A DNA stretch of 63,806 nucleotides, the filler included, from a bacterium (lineage in GTDB: Bacteria > CLD3 > SB21): NCBI GenBank assembly GCA_013360215.1. It is 3 parts of 3 records of this genome, joined end to end, with 100 filler letters (N's around TTAATTAATTAA, not from the genome) between each part and the next. Parts side by side here need not be neighbours in the genome. Positions count along the whole stretch, not along the records: positions 1 to 28,331 come from JABWCP010000035.1; 2 more parts are not named here. The stretch is one strand, 5' to 3'. The position numbers were made by a program, and so were the translations under genes. How positions within the stretch are numbered: the stretch's first letter is position 1; each line of letters starts with the position of its first letter. Under the pieces are notes generated by a model. That model was given only the letters and a program-made list of their open reading frames with translations, did not search any database and was not told the DNA's origin. Positions 1 through 54,992 of this stretch are shown piece after piece.

Positions 1-627
1 GGTAAATTGATACACCATCCGAATGTCGTGAAAATATACGGAGCGGGATCGAGCGAAACGCGTCGGTTCATCACGATGGAAATGGTGGAAGGCAAGACAT
101 TGAAGCAGTTAATTCGTGAAAAAGGCGCGTTACCTGTGGATGAAACTCTGCGAATGGCACTTCATATTGCCGAGGGGTTGAAAGAGATTCACAGGCATGG
201 TGTTGTTCATCGCGACCTCAAGTCGGAGAATGTATTACTGCGTTCAGCCGGAAGTTTGGTGATCATGGATTTTGGGTTGGCTCGGATTAAAGGTATGACA
301 TCGGCGGCGGCGAGAGATCAACTTGTGGGTACGCTAGCGTATATGAGTCCGGAGCAGAGCCTTGGTAAAGAGGTAGATCATCGTTCAGATATATATAGTT
401 TTGGCGTGATCATGTATGAGATGCTATATGGAGAGATGCCTTTTATTGCGAATAATGAGATGGAGTTGATATTGGCGATTCACAACGAGACCCCGCCACG
501 ACTGGTAGCGGCAGTGCAGACTCCATACTCGGAACTTATCCGAATATGTCTCGCTAAAAGTCCAGAACAACGCTTTGGGGATGTGCAAATGCTAATGAAT
601 AACCTTGGAACATTGAGAGTGAAATAA
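1..627 (+). CDS. Hanks-type Ser/Thr protein kinase, 5'-truncated at window edge
   Basis: HPNVVKIY, HRDLKSEN catalytic loop, DFG, GTLAYMSPE and SDIYSFG motifs. The frame is open from position 1 and the protein ends right after the kinase domain. Confidence 0.93.
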   Translation, partial: GKLIHHPNVVKIYGAGSSETRRFITMEMVEGKTLKQLIREKGALPVDETLRMALHIAEGLKEIHRHGVVHRDLKSENVLLRSAGSLVIMDFGLARIKGMTSAAARDQLVGTLAYMSPEQSLGKEVDHRSDIYSFGVIMYEMLYGEMPFIANNEMELILAIHNETPPRLVAAVQTPYSELIRICLAKSPEQRFGDVQMLMNNLGTLRVK

Positions 628-659
628 TATTTTACTTCTTTTGAAGGAGTTCGTAAAAA

Positions 660-1226
660 ATGGATAAAATAAAACAAATTACAATAGCAAGCGGAGGAGT
701 TATTGCGACATCATTTCTACCCTTGTACCTATACGCATTAAGAATCGAATATAACATACAAGTTAATGTAGCGTTGTCGCCGGAGGCATTAAATTTTGTT
801 ACACTTCCTTCGATGCGTGCTATTAGCGGTGGTGTAGTGTATACTAAAAATGTGCAATTTGATTCAAATAACTTGCCTTTACACATTACACTATCACAAT
901 CCGATTTGTTAATATTATATCCAGCCTCAGCAAGAATAATAGCGCAATGTGCTACCGGCGAAATTAATTGTTGTGTTACAAGATTATTTGCATTTACACC
1001 TAAAGAAAAAATTATAATATGTCCGATATTGCACCCACAAATGGAGCGTCAATTATATCAACCGCATATAACAAAGCTTGAATCTTTGGGTTGTAAAATT
1101 ATAGGTTCAATCGAAGAAGCTCCGAATTGGGTACAAATTCAGAATTTTTTTATAAAAAAGTTACGACTAAAAGCAAGAGATGGAAATTTAAGAAGCCATT
1201 TACTGTCTTCGTTAATTATGGGATAA
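660..1226 (+). CDS. HFCD-family flavoprotein (EpiD/LanD-like Cys decarboxylase)
   Basis: N-terminal SGG, LSPEALNFV, conserved His (LPLHITL), PASA(R) flavin-binding motif and PILHPQM (PxMNxxM equivalent). AAGGAG RBS upstream. Confidence 0.85.
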   Translation: MDKIKQITIASGGVIATSFLPLYLYALRIEYNIQVNVALSPEALNFVTLPSMRAISGGVVYTKNVQFDSNNLPLHITLSQSDLLILYPASARIIAQCATGEINCCVTRLFAFTPKEKIIICPILHPQMERQLYQPHITKLESLGCKIIGSIEEAPNWVQIQNFFIKKLRLKARDGNLRSHLLSSLIMG

Positions 1227-2330
1227 TACGGGCGGTAATCTTCGTTTTAGAAATAGCTCAGTGGCTTTGTGGCAAGCACCATAAGCTGAACTCATAATAG
1301 CCATTTCTTCGCTTATTAAGAGTTTAGCGATATGGATATTTTCTTTTTTTATGCCTGTTTTCATTAATGCCGGCATACATAGTGTCTCCCCTCCCAAGCC
1401 AAAAACAATAGCCTGTTTGCATTTACTAAAACCTTTTTTTGCCTTTCTGATCTCCACACTAAGTAGATCAATAGCCGCAACATAAAATTGGTTAGCAATA
1501 TCCTGCCACTCTTTTGTGGAAAAGAAAGTGGAATCCATATCTATGGTATCCGCTATAGCTCTTATAGCATCTTTTTTGGAACCTAAAGCTCCAAATAGGG
1601 ATAACTGATTGCTTAATTCGGTTGAAAGAAGTTCCAATAATGTGGAAATGGATTGAAACGTAACACCTCTTGGAATTACGTGAAATTTATTACCTTTAAT
1701 TCTAACTTCTTTTAGAAGATACTCCAAAGGAGTGGTTTGAGTGCCAATCCATATCAGTCGTCCCGATTGAATTCTCTTGTAATGAGTTTGTGAAACTTTA
1801 GAATCGGGGGGGATGATTTTTCCGTTAATCAGTTGAAAAACTGCAGTGGTCGATCCGCCCATATCTAACACGAGACCGCTGAAAAAGGGAGGGGTTAGGC
1901 GTTTTGCCAAATGAGCGGTACCGACCGAATTTGTGAAGAAGAAATTCTGAAGACTATCGTCGGATAGAGAACTGATTCTGGAAGTTAGAACAACTGATGT
2001 ATCTTGTGTAAAAAGATACGTGTTAGTCTTAGGCAAAAGAGCTTTTAAAACTGACGCTGTATGTTTAACGCCTTCTGAAAATGTCTGATACGAATAGCCT
2101 GAGCTTATTCCTGCGACTAAACTACATATCTTTTTTTGGTAGCCGACTCCTATGTTATCAATCAGTAGATTTCGAATATATCGTTCGAAATTAGACGACC
2201 GATCATATTTTGTAAACCCTGTATGATCAATATTGCAAGTGCACCACTTTATTTGTCGGGACTCACAATCATAAATAAAAACCTTGATTTTGCTGTTGCC
2301 GATATCTAGTCCGATGCATTTATTGCCCAT
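1212..2330 (-). CDS. ASKHA-fold hydantoinase/oxoprolinase-family protein, MfnF/Orf9-like
   Basis: Phosphate-1 GLDIGNSKIK and phosphate-2 LDMGGSTT. RIQSGRLIWIGTQTTP resembles the RL..GEL.Y.G..RTP motif of the MfnF family. Confidence 0.72.
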   Translation of the reverse strand: MGNKCIGLDIGNSKIKVFIYDCESRQIKWCTCNIDHTGFTKYDRSSNFERYIRNLLIDNIGVGYQKKICSLVAGISSGYSYQTFSEGVKHTASVLKALLPKTNTYLFTQDTSVVLTSRISSLSDDSLQNFFFTNSVGTAHLAKRLTPPFFSGLVLDMGGSTTAVFQLINGKIIPPDSKVSQTHYKRIQSGRLIWIGTQTTPLEYLLKEVRIKGNKFHVIPRGVTFQSISTLLELLSTELSNQLSLFGALGSKKDAIRAIADTIDMDSTFFSTKEWQDIANQFYVAAIDLLSVEIRKAKKGFSKCKQAIVFGLGGETLCMPALMKTGIKKENIHIAKLLISEEMAIMSSAYGACHKATELFLKRRLPPVLSHN

Positions 2331-2340
2331 ATTATAGCTA

Positions 2341-2568
2341 TTAGCATCCTACACCACCAGCAGAATCCAAAAGTTCTAGCACACCAAAATTACTTGCAAA
2401 AAGTAAAAAAGAGCTTTGGGTCATAGTCTTAAATAGTTCGGCTTGTTGCGTTGTTATTTTCACCCCTTTTTTATGGGCAGCTTTTTCAGGGTGAGACAAT
2501 AGAAGAGTACGAAATTTATCATCGGAAACAGCGCAATTAAGAAGATCGGATAAATTATTTTTTTTCAT
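2341..2568 (-). CDS. Putative RiPP precursor peptide (75 aa), NHLP-clan leader, C-terminal Cys
   Basis: GGAGG RBS at 2573-2577 before ATG 2568. AVSDDKFRTLLLSHPEKA..KKGVKIT matches the NHLP leader pattern (A..D..FR..LL..P..A...G). Ends LELLDSAGGVGC*. Confidence 0.78.
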   Translation of the reverse strand: MKKNNLSDLLNCAVSDDKFRTLLLSHPEKAAHKKGVKITTQQAELFKTMTQSSFLLFASNFGVLELLDSAGGVGC

Positions 2569-3091
2569 AAGTCCTCCATGATAATGGATTGAGGTTAAGA
2601 GATTGTGTAAGAAAAGATTTTTGAATAATTTTATCGTAGATCTCAAAAATTTTATCAGTCAAATCATGAGAATCATTCGTAAATAGTATAGGAATTGTAG
2701 TAAGCATGGTATCCCTTAGTGCTGCATCATAGATTGCTTTATCTAAACAAAGTAATCCATTTAAATTACCTTTAACCATCCAGTTTTGGAAAAAACGACA
2801 ATTTGCCTGAACAATTCCAATCAATGGTTTGTTTCTAGCTGCATACCAACCTGCTTCACTTGCGCAATCGATTCCAAAGGCATCTAATAGGATAATACCT
2901 GCGTCGGAGTTCTCCATTTCACTAATACATTGTTCATAAATTTTCTTGGGAAACTGAGAATGGGGTATATCTGGAAAGGTGAATTCTTGAGGAAGAATCA
3001 GTGATATTCGTTTCTCATCCAACTTTGATTTAAAATGAGAATTTATAGGCGCGTTTATGATACTTGCTGACAGGTATAAATTTAGTTTCAT
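2555..3091 (-). CDS. Nucleoside 2-deoxyribosyltransferase / nucleotide N-glycosidase family protein
   Basis: LYLSAS, LPQE, IYEQCISEMENSD and GIDCASEAGWYAARNKP (candidate catalytic Glu) fit the NDT/Rcl/MilB fold. Overlaps the precursor start by 14 nt. Confidence 0.78.
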   Translation of the reverse strand: MKLNLYLSASIINAPINSHFKSKLDEKRISLILPQEFTFPDIPHSQFPKKIYEQCISEMENSDAGIILLDAFGIDCASEAGWYAARNKPLIGIVQANCRFFQNWMVKGNLNGLLCLDKAIYDAALRDTMLTTIPILFTNDSHDLTDKIFEIYDKIIQKSFLTQSLNLNPLSWRTYEKK

Positions 3092-3307
3092 TCTGTTTGT
3101 ATAAGTTGAGAAACTTAGAGCTTATAAAACATATATATATGTAATAAAGAATGTAATGTCATGTTGCTCTTTTGTCAACAAAAAAACACATGTATACCAA
3201 TTGCTTATTTCAATAAATCAATGAAGATTAAAATTTTCAAAATCCCTTGCGAAGCGGGCTATTTCTTTTAAATTAAAATCATAACACTTACGGTTCCTCA
3301 CGGGTAT

Positions 3308-5050
3308 ATGATCAAAATTTATGAAAGCCTGCAGGATTTGCAGGTCAAAATAGACGAAACGTTCAAAGAGCTATCGCAGGGATTTAATAAAGTCAACGGC
3401 GCGATCACGCAAAAAAACCTTCCCGCCGCCGAATCCGCACTCAATGATCTTTTTAAAGCGTTTATGTCGCGTACCCGTGCGATAAACGCCCAGTCGGCGT
3501 CGGTCGGCGCGGACATCAAAAAAATAGAATCCCAGTGCGCTGAAATATCCGCCGAAAAAGAACAATTCAAAGCGTTGTATAATTCCGGCATCGCGATGAC
3601 GACGCAAGGCGAATTGCAGGGACTGATCACATTTGCGATGGATCAGATGACCTATCATCTTCGCGCGGAACGTGGTTTTCTGATTTTGGTGGATGAGCAC
3701 GGAGAACGCGAATACTTTGTCAGTAAAAATTTTGACGGACAAAATATAGACGACCCGGCCGCCGAAGTGAGCACCAGCGTAATTCAAAAAACATTGGATG
3801 CGTTACAACCGATCAAGGTGGACGACGATACACTATCCGAGAGCATCATGAAACAAGGTAGTTTTGTGCGCCTCGGGCTTCGTGCCGTGATGTCGGTGCC
3901 GATCATTTTCAGGAAAAAATTACTCGGTGTGGTCTATCTTGACCGGCGGGAAGAAACCAAAGGTTTTTCGGATAACGACTTGGCTTTTCTGATGGCATTT
4001 TCCCGGCAGATTGCTTTTCGGGTTAATGAACTCAAGGAACAACAGCATGTTCATACCGAATACGAACGCCGTGATCGCAATCGCTTACAATCGTTGCGAG
4101 AAAAATATAATTTTTCAGAAATCATCGGCAAAAGCGAACGGTTGGTCAAAGTACTTGAATTGGCCGGTAAGGTAGCATCTTCTGAGGTTACTGTTTTGAT
4201 CCAAGGCGAGAGCGGTACGGGTAAAGAATTGATCGCCCGTGCCATTCATTTTAACAGCGACCGGTACGAACATAAATTCATAGCTATCAATTGTGGTGCG
4301 ATTCCTTCGGAACTTCTCGAATCGGAATTATTCGGATACGAATCGGGTGCATTTACCGGTGCCGTCAAAACCAAAATTGGAAAATTTGAAGCGGCGCATC
4401 GCGGAACCTTGTTTTTGGATGAAGTAGCCGAGTTGTCTATGAACCTTCAGGCCAAAATTTTACGTGTTCTGCAAACCAAAGAACTCGAACGTCTTGGCAG
4501 TACGGAAACGCGCAAAATCGACCTGCGCATTATATCGGCCAGCAATAAAAACCTCCAGCAGATGGTGCGGGAAGGTAAATTTCGTGAAGATTTATATTAC
4601 CGTCTCAAAGTCGTAGAGATCGAATTACCGGCGTTACGAGAACGGAAGGAAGATATTCATCTTCTGGTTAGTTTTTTTGTTCAGAAATACGGCGAACAAC
4701 GGATTCAGTCGGTCAGCGAAGATGCGATGGATATTTTAGAAAACTACGCATGGCACGGCAATATCCGTGAATTGGAAAATGTCATTCAACGTGCGATCAT
4801 TCTTTCGTCCGGCGCGCAGATCGAAGTGCAGGATTTACCTCCGGAGATTGTTTCCAAAACGGAAAGCGGATATAAGGTAGACAAAGATTTGTCGCTCGAA
4901 GACGCGGAAACGGATTTTCGGCGATGGTTCGTGTTACGCGCACTGCGGAAAAGTAACAACAATAAATCCAAAGCCGCTGAAATGCTTGGCATCAACCGCA
5001 CCCACTTTTTTCGTATGCTCAATCAACTGGGCATATCCGACTCAGAATAG
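3308..5050 (+). CDS. Sigma-54-dependent enhancer-binding protein (coiled coil-GAF-AAA+-HTH)
   Basis: GAF motifs (SVPIIFRKKLLGVVYLD, FSDNDL), GESGTGKE, ESELFG, GAFTGA, FREDLYYRL, GNIRELEN and a C-terminal Fis-type HTH. Confidence 0.96.
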   Translation: MIKIYESLQDLQVKIDETFKELSQGFNKVNGAITQKNLPAAESALNDLFKAFMSRTRAINAQSASVGADIKKIESQCAEISAEKEQFKALYNSGIAMTTQGELQGLITFAMDQMTYHLRAERGFLILVDEHGEREYFVSKNFDGQNIDDPAAEVSTSVIQKTLDALQPIKVDDDTLSESIMKQGSFVRLGLRAVMSVPIIFRKKLLGVVYLDRREETKGFSDNDLAFLMAFSRQIAFRVNELKEQQHVHTEYERRDRNRLQSLREKYNFSEIIGKSERLVKVLELAGKVASSEVTVLIQGESGTGKELIARAIHFNSDRYEHKFIAINCGAIPSELLESELFGYESGAFTGAVKTKIGKFEAAHRGTLFLDEVAELSMNLQAKILRVLQTKELERLGSTETRKIDLRIISASNKNLQQMVREGKFREDLYYRLKVVEIELPALRERKEDIHLLVSFFVQKYGEQRIQSVSEDAMDILENYAWHGNIRELENVIQRAIILSSGAQIEVQDLPPEIVSKTESGYKVDKDLSLEDAETDFRRWFVLRALRKSNNNKSKAAEMLGINRTHFFRMLNQLGISDSE

Positions 5051-5250: not shown

Positions 5251-5460
5251 GTGAAAAAAAAGGTTCTCATTTTTAATCAAGACATTGATGAATTATCAGC
5301 TATACGCCAGGTATTGGTTCGGGAAGGGTATGAAGCGATAACGGCATCCAACTGGGATACGGCGACTAAACTTTTCGCCAGCCTTGAGATTGACTATGTG
5401 CTTATGAATGGTAAATCCGGCGATATTCAGCGCGTTTTACAAAGCGCACTCAAGATGTGA
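5251..5460 (+). CDS. Small truncated pseudo-receiver-domain protein (69 aa)
   Basis: KKVLI...L..EGYE..TA....A.......D.VLM is the receiver N-half, with acidic residues replaced (NQ, N). Confidence 0.62.
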   Translation: MKKKVLIFNQDIDELSAIRQVLVREGYEAITASNWDTATKLFASLEIDYVLMNGKSGDIQRVLQSALKM

Positions 5461-5506
5461 TCAAGTATTCGTACTGCAGCTTTAAAAAGTTGCTCGTGCG
5501 TGAGGA

Positions 5507-5538
5507 CCGCGCGGTTCTAATGGCCGCGCGGATTTTTT
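5507..5538 (+). terminator. Intrinsic terminator
   Basis: CCGCGCGGT..GCCGCGCGG stem followed by ATTTTTT. Confidence 0.7.
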
Positions 5539-5626
5539 GAAAAGTATGTTGGATATCATAGACAAACGTAAAGCCGTAAGGTAAATTTCGATCATAAGTA
5601 ATCATTAAAATCAATGGGAGGATTTT

Positions 5627-6451
5627 ATGAAACATCTAATGACAGGGGCTTGTATTTTGGTGTTGGTTGCGTTGACTTCATGTGGTGGTGATGATGCCGC
5701 CAAACCGGAAGAATTCGGAACGCAGGAAGAAGCCCTCACGGCTCTGAATGCAAATAAATCGAATATGTTGCTGGCTTTGGATGCCGCGGAAGGAGCAATT
5801 GATGCGGCTTCAGGTTTTGGATTAGACAAACGTTCCGCGTATAATTCCAAGAAACTTAACCGTGCAATGACTTATACGTACGACGCATCTACGGGTTGGT
5901 GGACGGACGAGTATACCAATTCATCCGGCGGGTATAATTATGATTACACATGGAACATTCGTTTTACACCACGCGATGCTAATGGGTATTCGACGGATGA
6001 AACTTCAAAAATGGAATATAAATACGATTATCTTTATAACGGGGCAAACACATATTATTCATATGACATGGATCTGGGTGCCGATATGACGTTGACGGGC
6101 GTCAATGCGTATCGTGCAGCGACCGGAAATCTTGTATTAAATGGTACGAATGCAATCAGTTATGTTTGGGATTATTCGTACCTCACGTATGATTACACGT
6201 ATGATTATAGTCATAAATATACCTATAAGTCTCTAGAGATATCACCCGATGGTGACTATCCTGAAGGCGGTTCGGTCAGTTTCACCATTCGTTCCAAGTT
6301 TGAAGGTGAGATAGGTGAAGAAGGTGGTGATGCATTGAATTATTATGTCGCCGGAAAGATAACGTTCGACGGAGACAATACGGCGCTGCTCGAATTCGGC
6401 GGTTTTTCTTTTATTCTTAATTTGGATACCAATGAAGTAACACCGGCATAA
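5627..6451 (+). CDS. Tyr-rich lipoprotein, paralogue 1
   Basis: Signal peptide with lipobox LTSC, GGGAGG RBS and alternating YxYxY strands. Confidence 0.88.
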   Translation: MKHLMTGACILVLVALTSCGGDDAAKPEEFGTQEEALTALNANKSNMLLALDAAEGAIDAASGFGLDKRSAYNSKKLNRAMTYTYDASTGWWTDEYTNSSGGYNYDYTWNIRFTPRDANGYSTDETSKMEYKYDYLYNGANTYYSYDMDLGADMTLTGVNAYRAATGNLVLNGTNAISYVWDYSYLTYDYTYDYSHKYTYKSLEISPDGDYPEGGSVSFTIRSKFEGEIGEEGGDALNYYVAGKITFDGDNTALLEFGGFSFILNLDTNEVTPA

Positions 6452-6480
6452 ATTTCCCCTTTCTTATTGGATTACAACCA

Positions 6481-6520
6481 AACCGCTTCGGTTCGTCATA
6501 GAGCCGGGCGGTTTTTTTAT
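6481..6520 (+). terminator. Intrinsic terminator (copy 1 of a duplicated element)
   Basis: AACCGCTTCGGTTC..GAGCCGGGCGGTTTTTTT. Confidence 0.82.
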
Positions 6521-6593
6521 GTAGATTTTTATTGGCTTCAGGCAACTCTTATCGTACCTTGCCCATATAGCCATAAAAACAAGGGAGGTAATT

Positions 6594-7418
6594 ATGAAAA
6601 AAGTAATGCGATTTTTGGTAGTAGCCATGAGTACGTTCATGACCTCGTGCGGAGGTGATGATGAACTCAAACCTGAAAAATTTGCAACCCAGGAAGAAGC
6701 CATGACGGCTTTTTCCAACAATCAATATAACATGCAAGATGCTTATCATAGCGTGGGTGATGCGATTGATTATACAGGCGGTGTGAGTGTGGGTGCGGTT
6801 AAAACCGAAAAAAAGAAAAAAACGAACCGTGCCATGACGTGGGCATATGACGCGTCAACCGGTTGGTGGTCTGATGCAAATCAATATAGCGGCGAAGGCT
6901 ATAATGAAAGTTATGAGTGGAAAATAAGATACTCTCCTCGCGACGCCAATGGTCAACCGACCGAAACTACGGATAAAATGGAGTATAAATATGATGTGGA
7001 CTTAGAGTCCGGCACATCCGGTAATATGCTAGAACTTTCGACGGATCAAGATATAACGCTAACCAATATTGATGAATTTAATGCCGAAACCGGTAATCTG
7101 ATTATCAATGGCTCAAATAATTTGTCTTGGAAGATGGCTTATGCGTACGAATTGTATTCGTATTCATACGAATACGTTCACAAATATAAATACAATTCGA
7201 TCGCCGCATCCCCGACCGATTCGTATCCGCAAAGCGGTTCGGTTAGTTTTACAATCAAATCGAATTTTGAAGGAGATGGGGTAGAAGGTGATCCGGAAGC
7301 TCTTAATTACTACATCGAAGCTAAAATCACTTTTGATGGTGATAACACGGCGATATTAGAATTTGGCGGATACAGTTTTACGCTCAATTTGGATAGCTTT
7401 TCGATAACGCCGATCTGA
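6594..7418 (+). CDS. Tyr-rich lipoprotein, paralogue 2
   Basis: Lipobox MTSC. Colinear with 5627..6451 (shared NRAMT.YDASTGWW, PRDANG, KMEYKYD, KITFDGDNTA.LEFGG). Confidence 0.88.
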   Translation: MKKVMRFLVVAMSTFMTSCGGDDELKPEKFATQEEAMTAFSNNQYNMQDAYHSVGDAIDYTGGVSVGAVKTEKKKKTNRAMTWAYDASTGWWSDANQYSGEGYNESYEWKIRYSPRDANGQPTETTDKMEYKYDVDLESGTSGNMLELSTDQDITLTNIDEFNAETGNLIINGSNNLSWKMAYAYELYSYSYEYVHKYKYNSIAASPTDSYPQSGSVSFTIKSNFEGDGVEGDPEALNYYIEAKITFDGDNTAILEFGGYSFTLNLDSFSITPI

Positions 7419-10453: not shown

Positions 10454-11251
10454 ATGGGTACATTTGACCGCGATGACAAAGAAGGTTGGCGCGAACGGGA
10501 AGGTGATGAAGAAGAACCTTGGAAAAAAGCACACGAAAACTGGAAAAACGATTCCCGCTTATCCGATGATGTTCCGGCTACCCGCGAAACCTCTCCGTTT
10601 TGGACAGAAGAACGCTGGGAACATTTTATTCAGGAAACAGACAAAGACGGGCTTCAGGTTATCAAGTACTACGAACGGTACTGGAATCATCAGGATCGTG
10701 ATGTCATGGTCGAAAACGCTATGGCACTTCATTACGTACGGGAAGCGTTCAAGCATATCCATCCGGAAAATCATAAATCTTTTTACGTGCATTATTTTTT
10801 AGAACCGGAATGTGCTTTGATGAAACTGCCGGTGCAAAGCAGCGGTCATTTTCTTGAAGCGAAATTGCGAACGGTGTCTGATATTCAGGCGTACCGGTTA
10901 GCGCGTGATTTCGCGCGGTTTGCATACCGTTGGCTAAAAGATCTGCCGGATGAATTGCGAATGGAAAAAGTCTCAGAAAGTTTTACTTCCAATATACTCA
11001 ATGTTTGCACCAAACTTTCCGGCGGCCATGTGATGGGATACCAACCGTGGACGATGGGCGGTCAAATCGTATTGACCAAACGCGCATTACGTTCGATCAA
11101 TCGCTGTATGGAAATTCTTTTTACCGTCAAAGATCAGTGGGCGCTGGATTACGATCAGTATCTGCAGCTAGACGAAATCGGTCTCGAAACACGCGGTGCC
11201 GTAGCGTTGCGTCTTCAGGACTTGCGTGAACAATTCAAATCGTCTTTTTAG
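10454..11251 (+). CDS. Hypothetical protein, C-terminal half resembling a four-helix bundle
   Basis: GAGG RBS and host-like codon usage. Acidic N-terminus, helical C-terminus. Confidence 0.65.
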   Translation: MGTFDRDDKEGWREREGDEEEPWKKAHENWKNDSRLSDDVPATRETSPFWTEERWEHFIQETDKDGLQVIKYYERYWNHQDRDVMVENAMALHYVREAFKHIHPENHKSFYVHYFLEPECALMKLPVQSSGHFLEAKLRTVSDIQAYRLARDFARFAYRWLKDLPDELRMEKVSESFTSNILNVCTKLSGGHVMGYQPWTMGGQIVLTKRALRSINRCMEILFTVKDQWALDYDQYLQLDEIGLETRGAVALRLQDLREQFKSSF

Positions 11252-12929
11252 AAATTTCAATCAATTGTCCCTCATCCAGTTCAAACATCCGATCTGCCCA
11301 CTGGCGCACGGCCGGGCGGTGGGAGACGATGATTCGCGTTTTATCTGAAAATAAACGGGTCATCGTTTCGAGAAGTGCTTTTTCAGTCGCCTCATCCAAA
11401 GCCGATGTGGCTTCATCCAAAAGTAAAATTTCCGGTTTACGCAAAACAATGCGTGCCAAAGCAAGCCGCTGACGTTCACCGCCGGACATGGTCCATCCTT
11501 TTTCTCCGATGATGGTATCCAAACCGTCAGGTAATGTTTTAATCCATGCGTGCAGTTGAACATGCATGAGCGCTTCGATCACTTGTTCATCGCTGACATG
11601 AATTTGATCGTACACGACATTGTCTCTTACCGTTGCATGCATGATCAGCGGTTCTTGTGTCATGAGCCCGAAAAGTTTTGCACGTGTAGCGTGCGAAATT
11701 TGTGTTACAGGGATACCGTCAAGCGTGATGCGGCCGCGTTGTGGCGCGTACAAACCGATGATCAAATCCAAAATAGTGCTTTTACCGGCGCCGGTTTTGC
11801 CTGTGATGACAATGCACTCGCCCCTCCGAATAGTTATATTCACTTTATTTAAAATCGCGGTGGTGCGATGTGCAAAACAAGTTTCTTCCAAACAAAGTGC
11901 GTTCGTGAAAGAAGTGTTATCTTTCGTCGGTGATGTTTCTTCGGACGGCGTAATCGGTTTGTTTTTGTATTCGTCCCACAACGTACGGGCTTCGGATAAA
12001 AACATACGCCCGCGTGCGATATGCCGCGCCGGATCAATGATCGAGAACGCGGCGGCGATAAATAATACAAAACCGCCGGGACCATACATAAATTCGCCTT
12101 CCATCGTCCATGAGCCAATCGTCAAAAGGAGCGTTACACCCACGCCCACACCGGCCATTTCTACCGCGGCCAGTACGATCGCTTGCAACCGATCACGACG
12201 GGTTGCCGCATCGCTCCGACGGTGTTCCAGTGATGAAAAACGTTTCGCTTCGTACACGGCGCTGTGAAATAGTCGAATCAATTTGAAAGCTTGCAGCTTA
12301 TGCCAGACATCCGACTGGATTTCGGATTCGCGCTCGTGTAAAAAAAGCGTCCATCGTGCTGTGTATTTTTGCAAGCGATGTTGCAATAACGTAATACCCG
12401 GAATCAATACAAGGCTCAATAAGGTGATCTTCCAGCTGAGTATAAAAAGCACTACGGAATAGAGTACAAGTAAAGGAAAATGCTGGCAAAGAGAAAAAAT
12501 CCATTGCATCCATGCGCGTACCATAGTTTCAGATGTGGTGATCAGGCGGTGATGCATCGCGCCGTGATTTTCTGCGAGAAATGCGCCGTAAGGCATGCGC
12601 AGCAGTTCATGTATTCGAAATTCGCGAAGCGCTGTGATAAGTTTTTGTTGTAACCGTGCGCCGATGGATTGGAATGCGATGTAGGCGAAGTTTTTTATTA
12701 AAAAAACAGCAAAAGTCGCCCCGCATAATATCCATAAAGCGGTGGTGCGATCTATGACGGGAAAAGAAATAAGCGGTGTAAGGGGAGTATGCGGACTGAA
12801 AACGAGATTGACGAACGGCATAACGATAGCCACACTGACAACCGAGCTCAACGCATATACGGTAGCCCAAAATACAAAGGCTAAATACGATGACAGGTAA
12901 GGGCTAATAAAAAAACGATACATGATCAC
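11235..12929 (-). CDS. ABC transporter permease/ATP-binding fusion (MsbA-like)
   Basis: TM domain, then GKTGAGKST, MSGGERQR, LLLDEATSALD and VSHR. Confidence 0.93.
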   Translation of the reverse strand: MIMYRFFISPYLSSYLAFVFWATVYALSSVVSVAIVMPFVNLVFSPHTPLTPLISFPVIDRTTALWILCGATFAVFLIKNFAYIAFQSIGARLQQKLITALREFRIHELLRMPYGAFLAENHGAMHHRLITTSETMVRAWMQWIFSLCQHFPLLVLYSVVLFILSWKITLLSLVLIPGITLLQHRLQKYTARWTLFLHERESEIQSDVWHKLQAFKLIRLFHSAVYEAKRFSSLEHRRSDAATRRDRLQAIVLAAVEMAGVGVGVTLLLTIGSWTMEGEFMYGPGGFVLFIAAAFSIIDPARHIARGRMFLSEARTLWDEYKNKPITPSEETSPTKDNTSFTNALCLEETCFAHRTTAILNKVNITIRRGECIVITGKTGAGKSTILDLIIGLYAPQRGRITLDGIPVTQISHATRAKLFGLMTQEPLIMHATVRDNVVYDQIHVSDEQVIEALMHVQLHAWIKTLPDGLDTIIGEKGWTMSGGERQRLALARIVLRKPEILLLDEATSALDEATEKALLETMTRLFSDKTRIIVSHRPAVRQWADRMFELDEGQLIEISKKTI

Positions 12930-28331: not shown

Positions 28332-28431
28332 NNNNNNNNNNNNNNNNNNNNNNNNNNNNNNNNNNNNNNNNNNNNTTAATTAATTAANNNNNNNNNNNNN
28401 NNNNNNNNNNNNNNNNNNNNNNNNNNNNNNN
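28332..28431. other. Artificial contig-join spacer
   Basis: N runs flanking TTAATTAATTAA (stops in all six frames), 100 nt in total, identical in layout to 54893-54992. Confidence 0.95.
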
Positions 28432-54892: not shown

Positions 54893-54992
54893 NNNNNNNN
54901 NNNNNNNNNNNNNNNNNNNNNNNNNNNNNNNNNNNNTTAATTAATTAANNNNNNNNNNNNNNNNNNNNNNNNNNNNNNNNNNNNNNNNNNNN
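54893..54992. other. Artificial contig-join spacer
   Basis: N runs flanking TTAATTAATTAA. Confidence 0.95.

Follow-up and report, generated by a model that had tools for sequence, protein, structure and literature searches.

The genes described here are located in a window of 63,806 nucleotides (63.8 kb), by which we mean the whole stretch of DNA that was analysed; it contains four runs of N of 44 nt each, in two pairs at 28332-28431 and 54893-54992. The DNA of this stretch occurs mostly in activated-sludge metagenomes. A gene for a small peptide, P0001, is flanked by genes for a nucleoside 2-deoxyribosyltransferase-like (NDT-like) protein and an ASKHA-fold protein, while the gene for a flavoprotein of the HFCD family runs towards them on the other strand. 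The following features were recognized:

1..627, plus strand: Hanks-type Ser/Thr kinase, truncated at the window start so that the C-terminal 208 aa remain (Pkinase, E 1.9e-44)
660..1226, plus strand: HFCD-family flavoprotein of 188 aa, convergent with the operon (PF02441, 33.8 bits); candidate peptidyl-cysteine decarboxylase
1212..2330, minus strand: P0002, predicted ASKHA-fold protein of 372 aa from the hydantoinase-A/MfnF-like branch
2341..2568, minus strand: P0001, putative precursor or scaffold peptide of 75 aa, with a predicted Os1348-type NHLP-clan helical domain and a flexible GGVGC tail carrying the invariant Cys75
2573..2577, minus strand: GGAGG, Shine-Dalgarno-like motif
2555..3091, minus strand: P0003, NDT-like protein of 178 aa (PF05014, 35.6 bits against a cut-off of 28.8)
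3150..3178, minus strand: sigma-70-like promoter candidate (TTGACA, 17 nt, TACATT; 10/12) upstream of the NDT-like gene, from a consensus scan
3308..5050, plus strand: P0004, GAF/sigma-54 activator, divergent from the operon (Pfam and NCBIfam)

Translation of P0001 from the ATG at 2568 yields a peptide of 75 aa, the C-terminal end of which reads LELLDSAGGVGC and is followed by a TAA stop. The list of ORFs contained a longer version of this frame (2341..2646, minus strand; 101 aa) with a TTG start. As this TTG falls within the upstream gene at 2555-3091 and the relatives of P0001 are 72-74 aa long in 27 of 28 cases, the remaining one being a truncated call of 66 aa, the shorter version is favoured. 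The preliminary description had chosen the same start on the strength of a GGAGG ribosome-binding site, and its choice is borne out by the lengths of the relatives and by a direct reading of the sequence, in which the motif (2577-2573) lies 4 nt before the ATG (2568-2566). The start of P0001 overlaps the stop of the NDT-like gene by 14 nt and its own stop is followed after 10 nt by the ATG of the ASKHA gene at 2330, so that the NDT-like, precursor, and ASKHA genes form a tight three-gene operon. The 3' ends of the convergent ASKHA (1212-2330) and flavoprotein (660-1226) genes overlap by 15 nt (1212-1226), and 32 nt separate the kinase gene from the flavoprotein gene that follows it.

The P0001 ORF was wholly covered by contigs of three RNA-labelled runs from two studies, one of these contigs spanning 1947-2774, and likewise by a fourth run of doubtful type. 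Bearing in mind that such libraries may contain DNA and that contigs give neither strand nor level, the gene is probably transcribed. Gaps in the RNA contigs within positions 1-3300 (1-640 and 3081-3300) do not indicate silence. Shortly before the start of the precursor gene, at 2550-2583, a contig from an RNA run (X18, record 10) doubles back on its own sequence, perhaps as a snap-back artefact marking the end of a transcript. Hexamers of sigma-70-like type occur on the same strand at 2662-2633 and 2646-2617. A sigma-54 promoter was not detected upstream of the operon in 3092-3307 when up to two mismatches were allowed. In the window as a whole, 24 sigma-54-type sites were found against 28.3 by chance and thus not above chance. 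One such site with a single mismatch, TGGCACAGCAATTGAT, is located just 3' of P0004 (5203-5218, plus strand). Downstream of it are a 69-aa receiver-like ORF (5251-5460) and two genes for paralogous 274-aa lipoproteins (5627-6451 and 6594-7418; lipobox-like ...TSCGG), for which no Pfam or NCBIfam family was matched. A link between P0004 and the peptide cluster is possible, although the activator may instead control the genes at 5251-7418.

P0001 was matched by the NCBIfam model NF038399, which describes the Os1348 family of the NHLP clan, with an E value of 2.1e-9 and 37.3 bits, 2.7 bits under the curated cut-off of 40. Two other NHLP models matched more weakly, and the Pfam model Frankia_peptide reached only 17.6 bits. 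Syntenic homologues of P0001 pass NF038399 with 41.6 and 53.6 bits, and one database member of the family carries the NCBI name "Os1348 family NHLP clan protein". A profile of four precursors, among them P0001, matched nitrile hydratase alpha chains (E 2.3e-5) and the crystal structure of Os1348, 6lk7 (E 2.4e-4). The matches to NF038399, nitrile hydratase alpha chains, and 6lk7 support the assignment to the NHLP clan made in the preliminary description and, combined with the syntenic homologues, set P0001 apart from a chance ORF. The gene is thus real and conserved.

An AlphaFold2 model of P0001 made from 11 sequences had a mean pLDDT of 80 and helices at residues 5-70, with pLDDT values of 88-94 at residues 11-60 and values below 50 only at 71-75. 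When this model was submitted to Foldseek, the best three rows were chains of 6lk7 (TM 0.59-0.67, with weak E values of 0.11-0.36), and two proteusin precursor structures were also in the list. The leader is thus modelled as a folded, nitrile-hydratase-alpha-like helical domain, from which a disordered tail of residues 71-75 protrudes.

Relatives of P0001 could be reached only by way of the neighbouring enzymes. A word-index search with the P0001 sequence returned P0001 itself and nothing else, while an exhaustive phmmer search (E ≤0.001) returned three proteins: P0001, P0005, and P0006. P0005, a repeat-rich protein of 2123 aa, was rejected as a relative because the match was judged compositional. 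P0006, from the representative library (769 aa), is the only meaningful distant match (E 5.4e-4). It is a membrane-anchored, surface-type protein with four tandem NHLP-like units in its C-terminal half that each end in ISQIGDELLCA(N/H)GGPCG, so that several precursor-like copies form an array within one large fusion protein. P0002 has one relative in the database (34 % identical). When genome contigs were scanned with P0002 alone, none of the 132 pattern matches proved to be a relative. The loci L001-L005 were obtained from metagenome contigs by a pattern scan based on the P0002 alignment of two sequences. Scanning about 185,000 species genomes with a P0003 alignment led to nine loci, eight with a precursor gene and one (L010) without. 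Most of the nine are titled Myxococcota MAGs (Labilithrix, Polyangiaceae, Nannocystaceae).

Mapping by tblastn revealed a fixed gene order in the related loci: NDT-like, precursor, ASKHA, a protein of about 800 aa with an HExxH motif, and the convergent HFCD gene. Counted over those loci whose contig reaches the position concerned, and with L004 and L013 identical in sequence, the NDT-like gene is upstream of the precursor in 10/10 loci and the ASKHA gene downstream of it in 11/11; the HExxH gene comes next after the ASKHA gene in 10/10, and the HFCD gene is present in all four related loci that extend that far. The window retains the core four genes in this arrangement (NDT-like, 2555-3091; precursor; ASKHA, 1212-2330; convergent HFCD, 660-1226), and its flavoprotein is 44 % identical to the orthologue of L003. 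The HExxH gene, which separates the ASKHA and flavoprotein genes in the relatives, is absent from that position in the window. The relatives' HExxH protein has a C-terminal cNMP-binding domain, and its HExxH domain has only weak metallopeptidase-like look-alikes (feature scores ≤0.85, TM ≤0.53). No tblastn match to the HExxH protein, the PLP decarboxylase, the DUF4153 protein, or the UbiA-like protein of the relatives was obtained in the 63.8-kb window. A reading of the cluster as a defence system was dropped: PADLOC models returned nothing for P0001, P0002, P0003, or the flavoprotein, the sole match being that of the cNMP-binding domain of the relatives' HExxH protein to Pycsar-type effector models.

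Accessory genes vary by lineage. The kinase was found in the window and in none of the precursor-bearing related loci; its membership of the peptide system is uncertain. In L007 (6985-9972) and L009 (6996-9949), which represent one lineage, the NDT-like gene is immediately preceded on its own strand by genes for an FHA/sigma-54 activator and for a PLP-dependent decarboxylase of group II (PF00282); neither the window nor any of the other loci has this decarboxylase. At 1428-2746 of L010, the gene for an NDT-like orthologue with 55 % identity has as its immediate downstream neighbour one for a prenyltransferase-like membrane protein of the UbiA type, which takes the place of the precursor and ASKHA genes. 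In L005 (9992-18246), the gene for a paralogue of the ASKHA protein, with 28 % identity to P0002, shares 4 nt with the start of the gene for a Ser/Thr kinase of 541 aa, after which comes a PKS of 1817 aa; a gamma-glutamyltranspeptidase-like gene is located upstream; this locus is devoid of precursor and NDT-like genes and is a second case in which the ASKHA branch of P0002 is found beside a Hanks kinase. A search of 401 sampled genomes of the phylum of the seed with the NDT-like profile detected the seed only (0/400 others), from which it follows that the system is rare. The AT-rich character of the operon region relative to the window (0.38-0.40 versus 0.44), combined with the fact that nearly all relatives are high-GC Myxococcota, hints at horizontal transfer.

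Conservation within the precursor family is concentrated at the C-terminus. All 28 database cluster representatives obtained in a profile search end in RRAAC, and all ten distinct locus-encoded homologues of P0001 end in (T/S)DPx(K/R)RRAAC; the two sets overlap and consist mostly of Myxococcota MAGs. In an alignment of 11 precursors, P27, F57, D68, and C75 are invariant. The C-terminal Cys is thus, in the sequences aligned, an invariant feature of the family, Cys75 of P0001 included, and the weight that the preliminary description placed on this residue was well founded. Apart from it, the P0001 tail (LLDSAGGVGC) has only the Asp in common with that of its relatives; what the family shares is a terminal Cys preceded by two small residues (AA in the relatives, VG in P0001) and an Asp 7-8 residues earlier. 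The mean pairwise identity among the ten relatives was 82 % over the last 11 columns versus 43 % over the leader, a pattern typical of scaffold peptides with a fixed product rather than of diversifying antibiotics. The cores of antimicrobial RiPPs usually show the opposite, being less conserved than their leaders, while PqqA and MftA are scaffold peptides with one fixed product and a conserved C-terminal end.

Two models had been proposed for the tail: closure of Ser69 onto Cys75 as an AviCys macrocycle, for which Ser69 was expected to be conserved, and a core of three residues behind a double-glycine leader end, for which GG-x-x-C was expected to be conserved. Neither pattern emerged. In the alignment of 11 sequences, Ser69 is opposite Pro in all ten relatives; a gapped alignment of four sequences had paired it with Ser, so that its apparent conservation was alignment-dependent. 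The double Gly is present in one of 29 family members, P0001 itself, and no C39-domain transporter adjoins the gene, so that the double-glycine leader end falls away. Of the proposal of an extremely short core, the part that stands is that a tiny segment (71-75) lies outside the folded domain in the model; the double-glycine logic behind it does not. The remark that neither lyase, protease, nor transporter is visible beside P0001 holds for the window. The only ABC transporter among the genes scanned, and the nearest (11235-12929; 564 aa, no peptidase domain reported), is about 8 kb away behind unrelated genes. The flavoprotein, an enzyme needed by both models, is present in the window and is conserved along with the precursor.

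This flavoprotein matched the coaBC_dfp, CypD, and CoaC models, in each case far below the curated cut-off. Its nearest solved relatives are 6jls, deposited as a "putative flavoprotein decarboxylase" (35.5 bits), the mycobacterial CoaBC 6tgv, PPC decarboxylase, and CypD (6jdd), and no UbiX-type chain was among its solved matches. His75 of the flavoprotein is invariant and occupies the position of the His of CoaBC and PPC decarboxylase, its P-x-x-H-x-x-M stretch corresponding to PAMHTEM of the CoaBC chain; the canonical substrate clamp, as judged by eye, is absent. From these similarities the protein is best read as a putative cysteine decarboxylase.

P0002 can confidently be predicted to adopt the ASKHA fold. 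Its AlphaFold2 model (pLDDT 89) gave as best Foldseek matches 3cet and 3c0b of Methanococcus maripaludis (TM 0.68-0.83), followed by sugar kinases and ATPase subunits of acetone carboxylase; 3c0b was also matched by sequence (E 1.5e-15), and the closest solved relative was deposited as "pantothenate kinase-like". The residues of the phosphate-1 (D9, G11, N12, K14, K16) and phosphate-2 (D156, G158) motifs as well as G313 of the adenosine-type motif are invariant, and G311 of the latter motif is nearly so. P0002 scored 65.1 bits with TIGR03123 (cut-off 244.1) and 57.6 bits with the MfnF model NF040623 (cut-off 520), far below both cut-offs, and therefore belongs to a sister branch rather than being an orthologue. 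Its role could be that of a kinase or activator that depends on ATP, or that of an alkyl transferase that depends on a diphosphate. MfnF/Orf9 (TIGR03123), which functions in the biosynthesis of methanofuran/methylofuran, has the ASKHA fold in common with P0002 at the superfamily level only. MfnF is reported to couple a furan activated as diphosphate with a unit of Glu-Tyr or tyramine (PMC8141765), and this reaction sets a precedent in which an alkyl group is transferred to a nucleophile.

Of the proteins encoded in the cluster, the NDT-like P0003 is the best conserved, with 38-53 % identity to its relatives. D70, D75, and E79 are invariant; the LD..(I/V)D..E and LPQE motifs align with the solved NDT chains 7o62 and 7m5h, and all Atlas look-alikes belong to the NDT family. 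The Asp/Asp/Glu motif of this family is found in enzymes that cleave or transfer (deoxy)ribosyl groups, normally on nucleotides. An intact glycosyl-transfer or hydrolase site in P0003 is therefore likely, as far as aligned motifs can tell. A prediction of a three-chain complex (NDT-like protein and ASKHA protein with the precursor as partner), run without controls, scored 0.01 against a mark of 0.32; it gives no answer and counts neither way.

Among characterized systems, Os1348 of Pseudomonas sp. Os17 (NF038399; 6lk7) is closest as far as the leader is concerned: it probably belongs to the same family and is, like P0001, a small, folded, helical precursor-like protein. The prototype is 85 aa long and has been linked to antibiotic activity; its gene is accompanied by those for a GNAT protein, a peptidase-like protein with HExxH motif, a dehydrogenase of the SagB type, and efflux functions, and the text searched contains no occurrence of the word cysteine (PMC7726476). 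An HExxH protein is common to the prototype's cluster (PMC7726476) and to those of the relatives of P0001, but is lacking in the window. P0001 has the NDT-like, ASKHA, and HFCD proteins as its partners, and the window contains no counterpart to any of the prototype's partners.

A further comparison, which concerns the tail, is with small-molecule pathways that operate on the C-terminus of a scaffold peptide. Such pathways are known for mycofactocin (MftA), PQQ (PqqA), and the pearlins, for example 3-thiaglutamate. The P0001 family resembles them in having invariant C-terminal residues that are more conserved than the leader (82 versus 43 %), in a conserved gene block without transporter or immunity gene, and perhaps in the HExxH protein of its relatives, a putative peptidase. 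Decarboxylation of the C-terminus, the first step in mycofactocin formation, would also come first here. Unlike those systems, the P0001 cluster has no radical-SAM enzyme, PqqD-type RRE, or PEARL; its putative decarboxylase is a flavoprotein and the residue concerned a Cys, and the penultimate residues vary within the family (VG in the window versus AA in the relatives).

Taking these data together, the reading that we favour, and consider reasonably probable, is that P0001 is an NHLP scaffold or precursor peptide of the Os1348 branch, with a folded leader and a very short tail whose terminal Cys undergoes oxidative decarboxylation and subsequent modification. The individual chemical steps and the product are all inferred. 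Most likely, the HFCD flavoprotein would oxidatively decarboxylate Cys75 to an aminoenethiol or, after reduction, a cysteamine-like end. The ASKHA and NDT-like enzymes would then act on this end or close to it, P0002 by using ATP or a diphosphate-activated donor and P0003, with its Asp/Asp/Glu motif, as an enzyme of the (deoxy)ribosyl-cleaving or -transferring type. In the relatives, the HExxH/cNMP-binding protein may trim or release the tail by a cut after RR, which would free a unit derived from AAC; GG|VGC would be the analogue of this site in the window. A more specific version, in which S-(deoxy)ribosylation or S-alkylation of the decarboxylated Cys by the NDT-like and MfnF-like enzymes leads to a thio-nucleoside or cofactor-like small molecule or to a protein-borne, pantetheine-like arm, is put forward as a tentative and on the whole unlikely outcome.

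Alternatively, though with rather little probability, P0001 might be a carrier protein that is never cleaved, the decarboxylated Cys serving as a pantetheine-like cysteamine arm or as attachment site for a ribosyl or nucleotide group, so as to carry or sense a group, and not giving rise to a secreted product. This proposal agrees with a leader modelled as a folded domain, with a tail conserved above the leader, with the window lacking a protease or transporter nearby, and with the relationships of the two enzymes, CoaC being among the relatives of the flavoprotein and a "pantothenate kinase-like" structure the closest to P0002. It is, however, purely inferential, and the metallopeptidase-like look-alikes of the relatives' HExxH protein, weak as they are, suggest cleavage; the link of the Os1348 prototype with antibiotic activity also argues against it (PMC7726476).

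Formation of an AviCys ring as envisaged in the preliminary description seems more doubtful than the carrier. In such a route, a Ser or Thr of the tail, Ser69 in P0001, would receive a phosphate from either the Hanks kinase or the ASKHA protein and undergo elimination, after which the enethiol of Cys75 would add to give an S-A-G-G-V-G-C ring. A C-terminal Cys and an HFCD flavoprotein are the hallmark pair of AviCys peptides, the decarboxylases of which are of the HFCD/LanD type (EpiD, CypD, thioamitide TvaF type), and the window flavoprotein, with its predicted activity, is close to 6jls and CypD 6jdd. In addition, the flavoprotein gene of the window is immediately preceded by the kinase gene, the ASKHA paralogue of L005 is translationally coupled to a Ser/Thr kinase, and no member of the family is without a Ser or Thr in its last 12 residues. 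Against this, all ten relatives have Pro opposite Ser69. The hydroxyl residue that they do have, a T or S at position -9 in 27 of 28 (Val in P0020), would imply a ring of ten residues that is highly charged. No kinase was found in the precursor-bearing related loci, and neither a lyase nor a dehydratase of the LanB/LanM/LanKC type was found among the genes scanned. The leader of P0001, furthermore, is a (modelled) folded NHLP domain, and we know of no NDT-like or ASKHA enzyme in an AviCys pathway.

Least probable of all is that P0001 is an unmodified protein, a small nitrile-hydratase-alpha-like helical regulatory or metal-binding partner next to enzymes of an unrelated nucleotide or cofactor pathway: although P0002 has its relatives (MfnF, TIGR03123) in cofactor biosynthesis, nucleotides are the normal substrates of NDT-like proteins, and L010 (NDT-like) and L005 (ASKHA) occur without a precursor, this would require that an invariant Cys beside a flavoprotein of the Cys-decarboxylase type, a strict gene order, and membership of a RiPP-precursor clan coincide by accident.

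In conclusion, the P0001 cluster probably marks an undescribed peptide-modification pathway and is a rare new candidate among RiPPs and scaffold peptides. Its kind, that of a RiPP or scaffold peptide with Cys decarboxylation, is already known, while the set of enzymes is new to the field: to our knowledge, neither NDT-like nor MfnF-like ASKHA enzymes have been reported in peptide natural-product biosynthesis. The full-text literature searched, with subscription journals and supplementary files outside its scope, contained no paper on a cluster combining NHLP, HFCD, NDT, and ASKHA proteins. If the favoured reading, that of a scaffold peptide with a decarboxylated and further modified terminal Cys, is correct, the RiPP toolbox would gain the nucleoside-deoxyribosyltransferase-like and the MfnF/hydantoinase-A-like ASKHA families, and a protein-like leader of the NHLP type would be found to carry a core that consists of very few residues, the last of them Cys. 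The P0001 family, being small and rare, would make a compact target, and the idea of small molecules built on scaffold peptides, as known from PQQ, mycofactocin, and the pearlins, would extend to flavin-dependent decarboxylation of cysteine.
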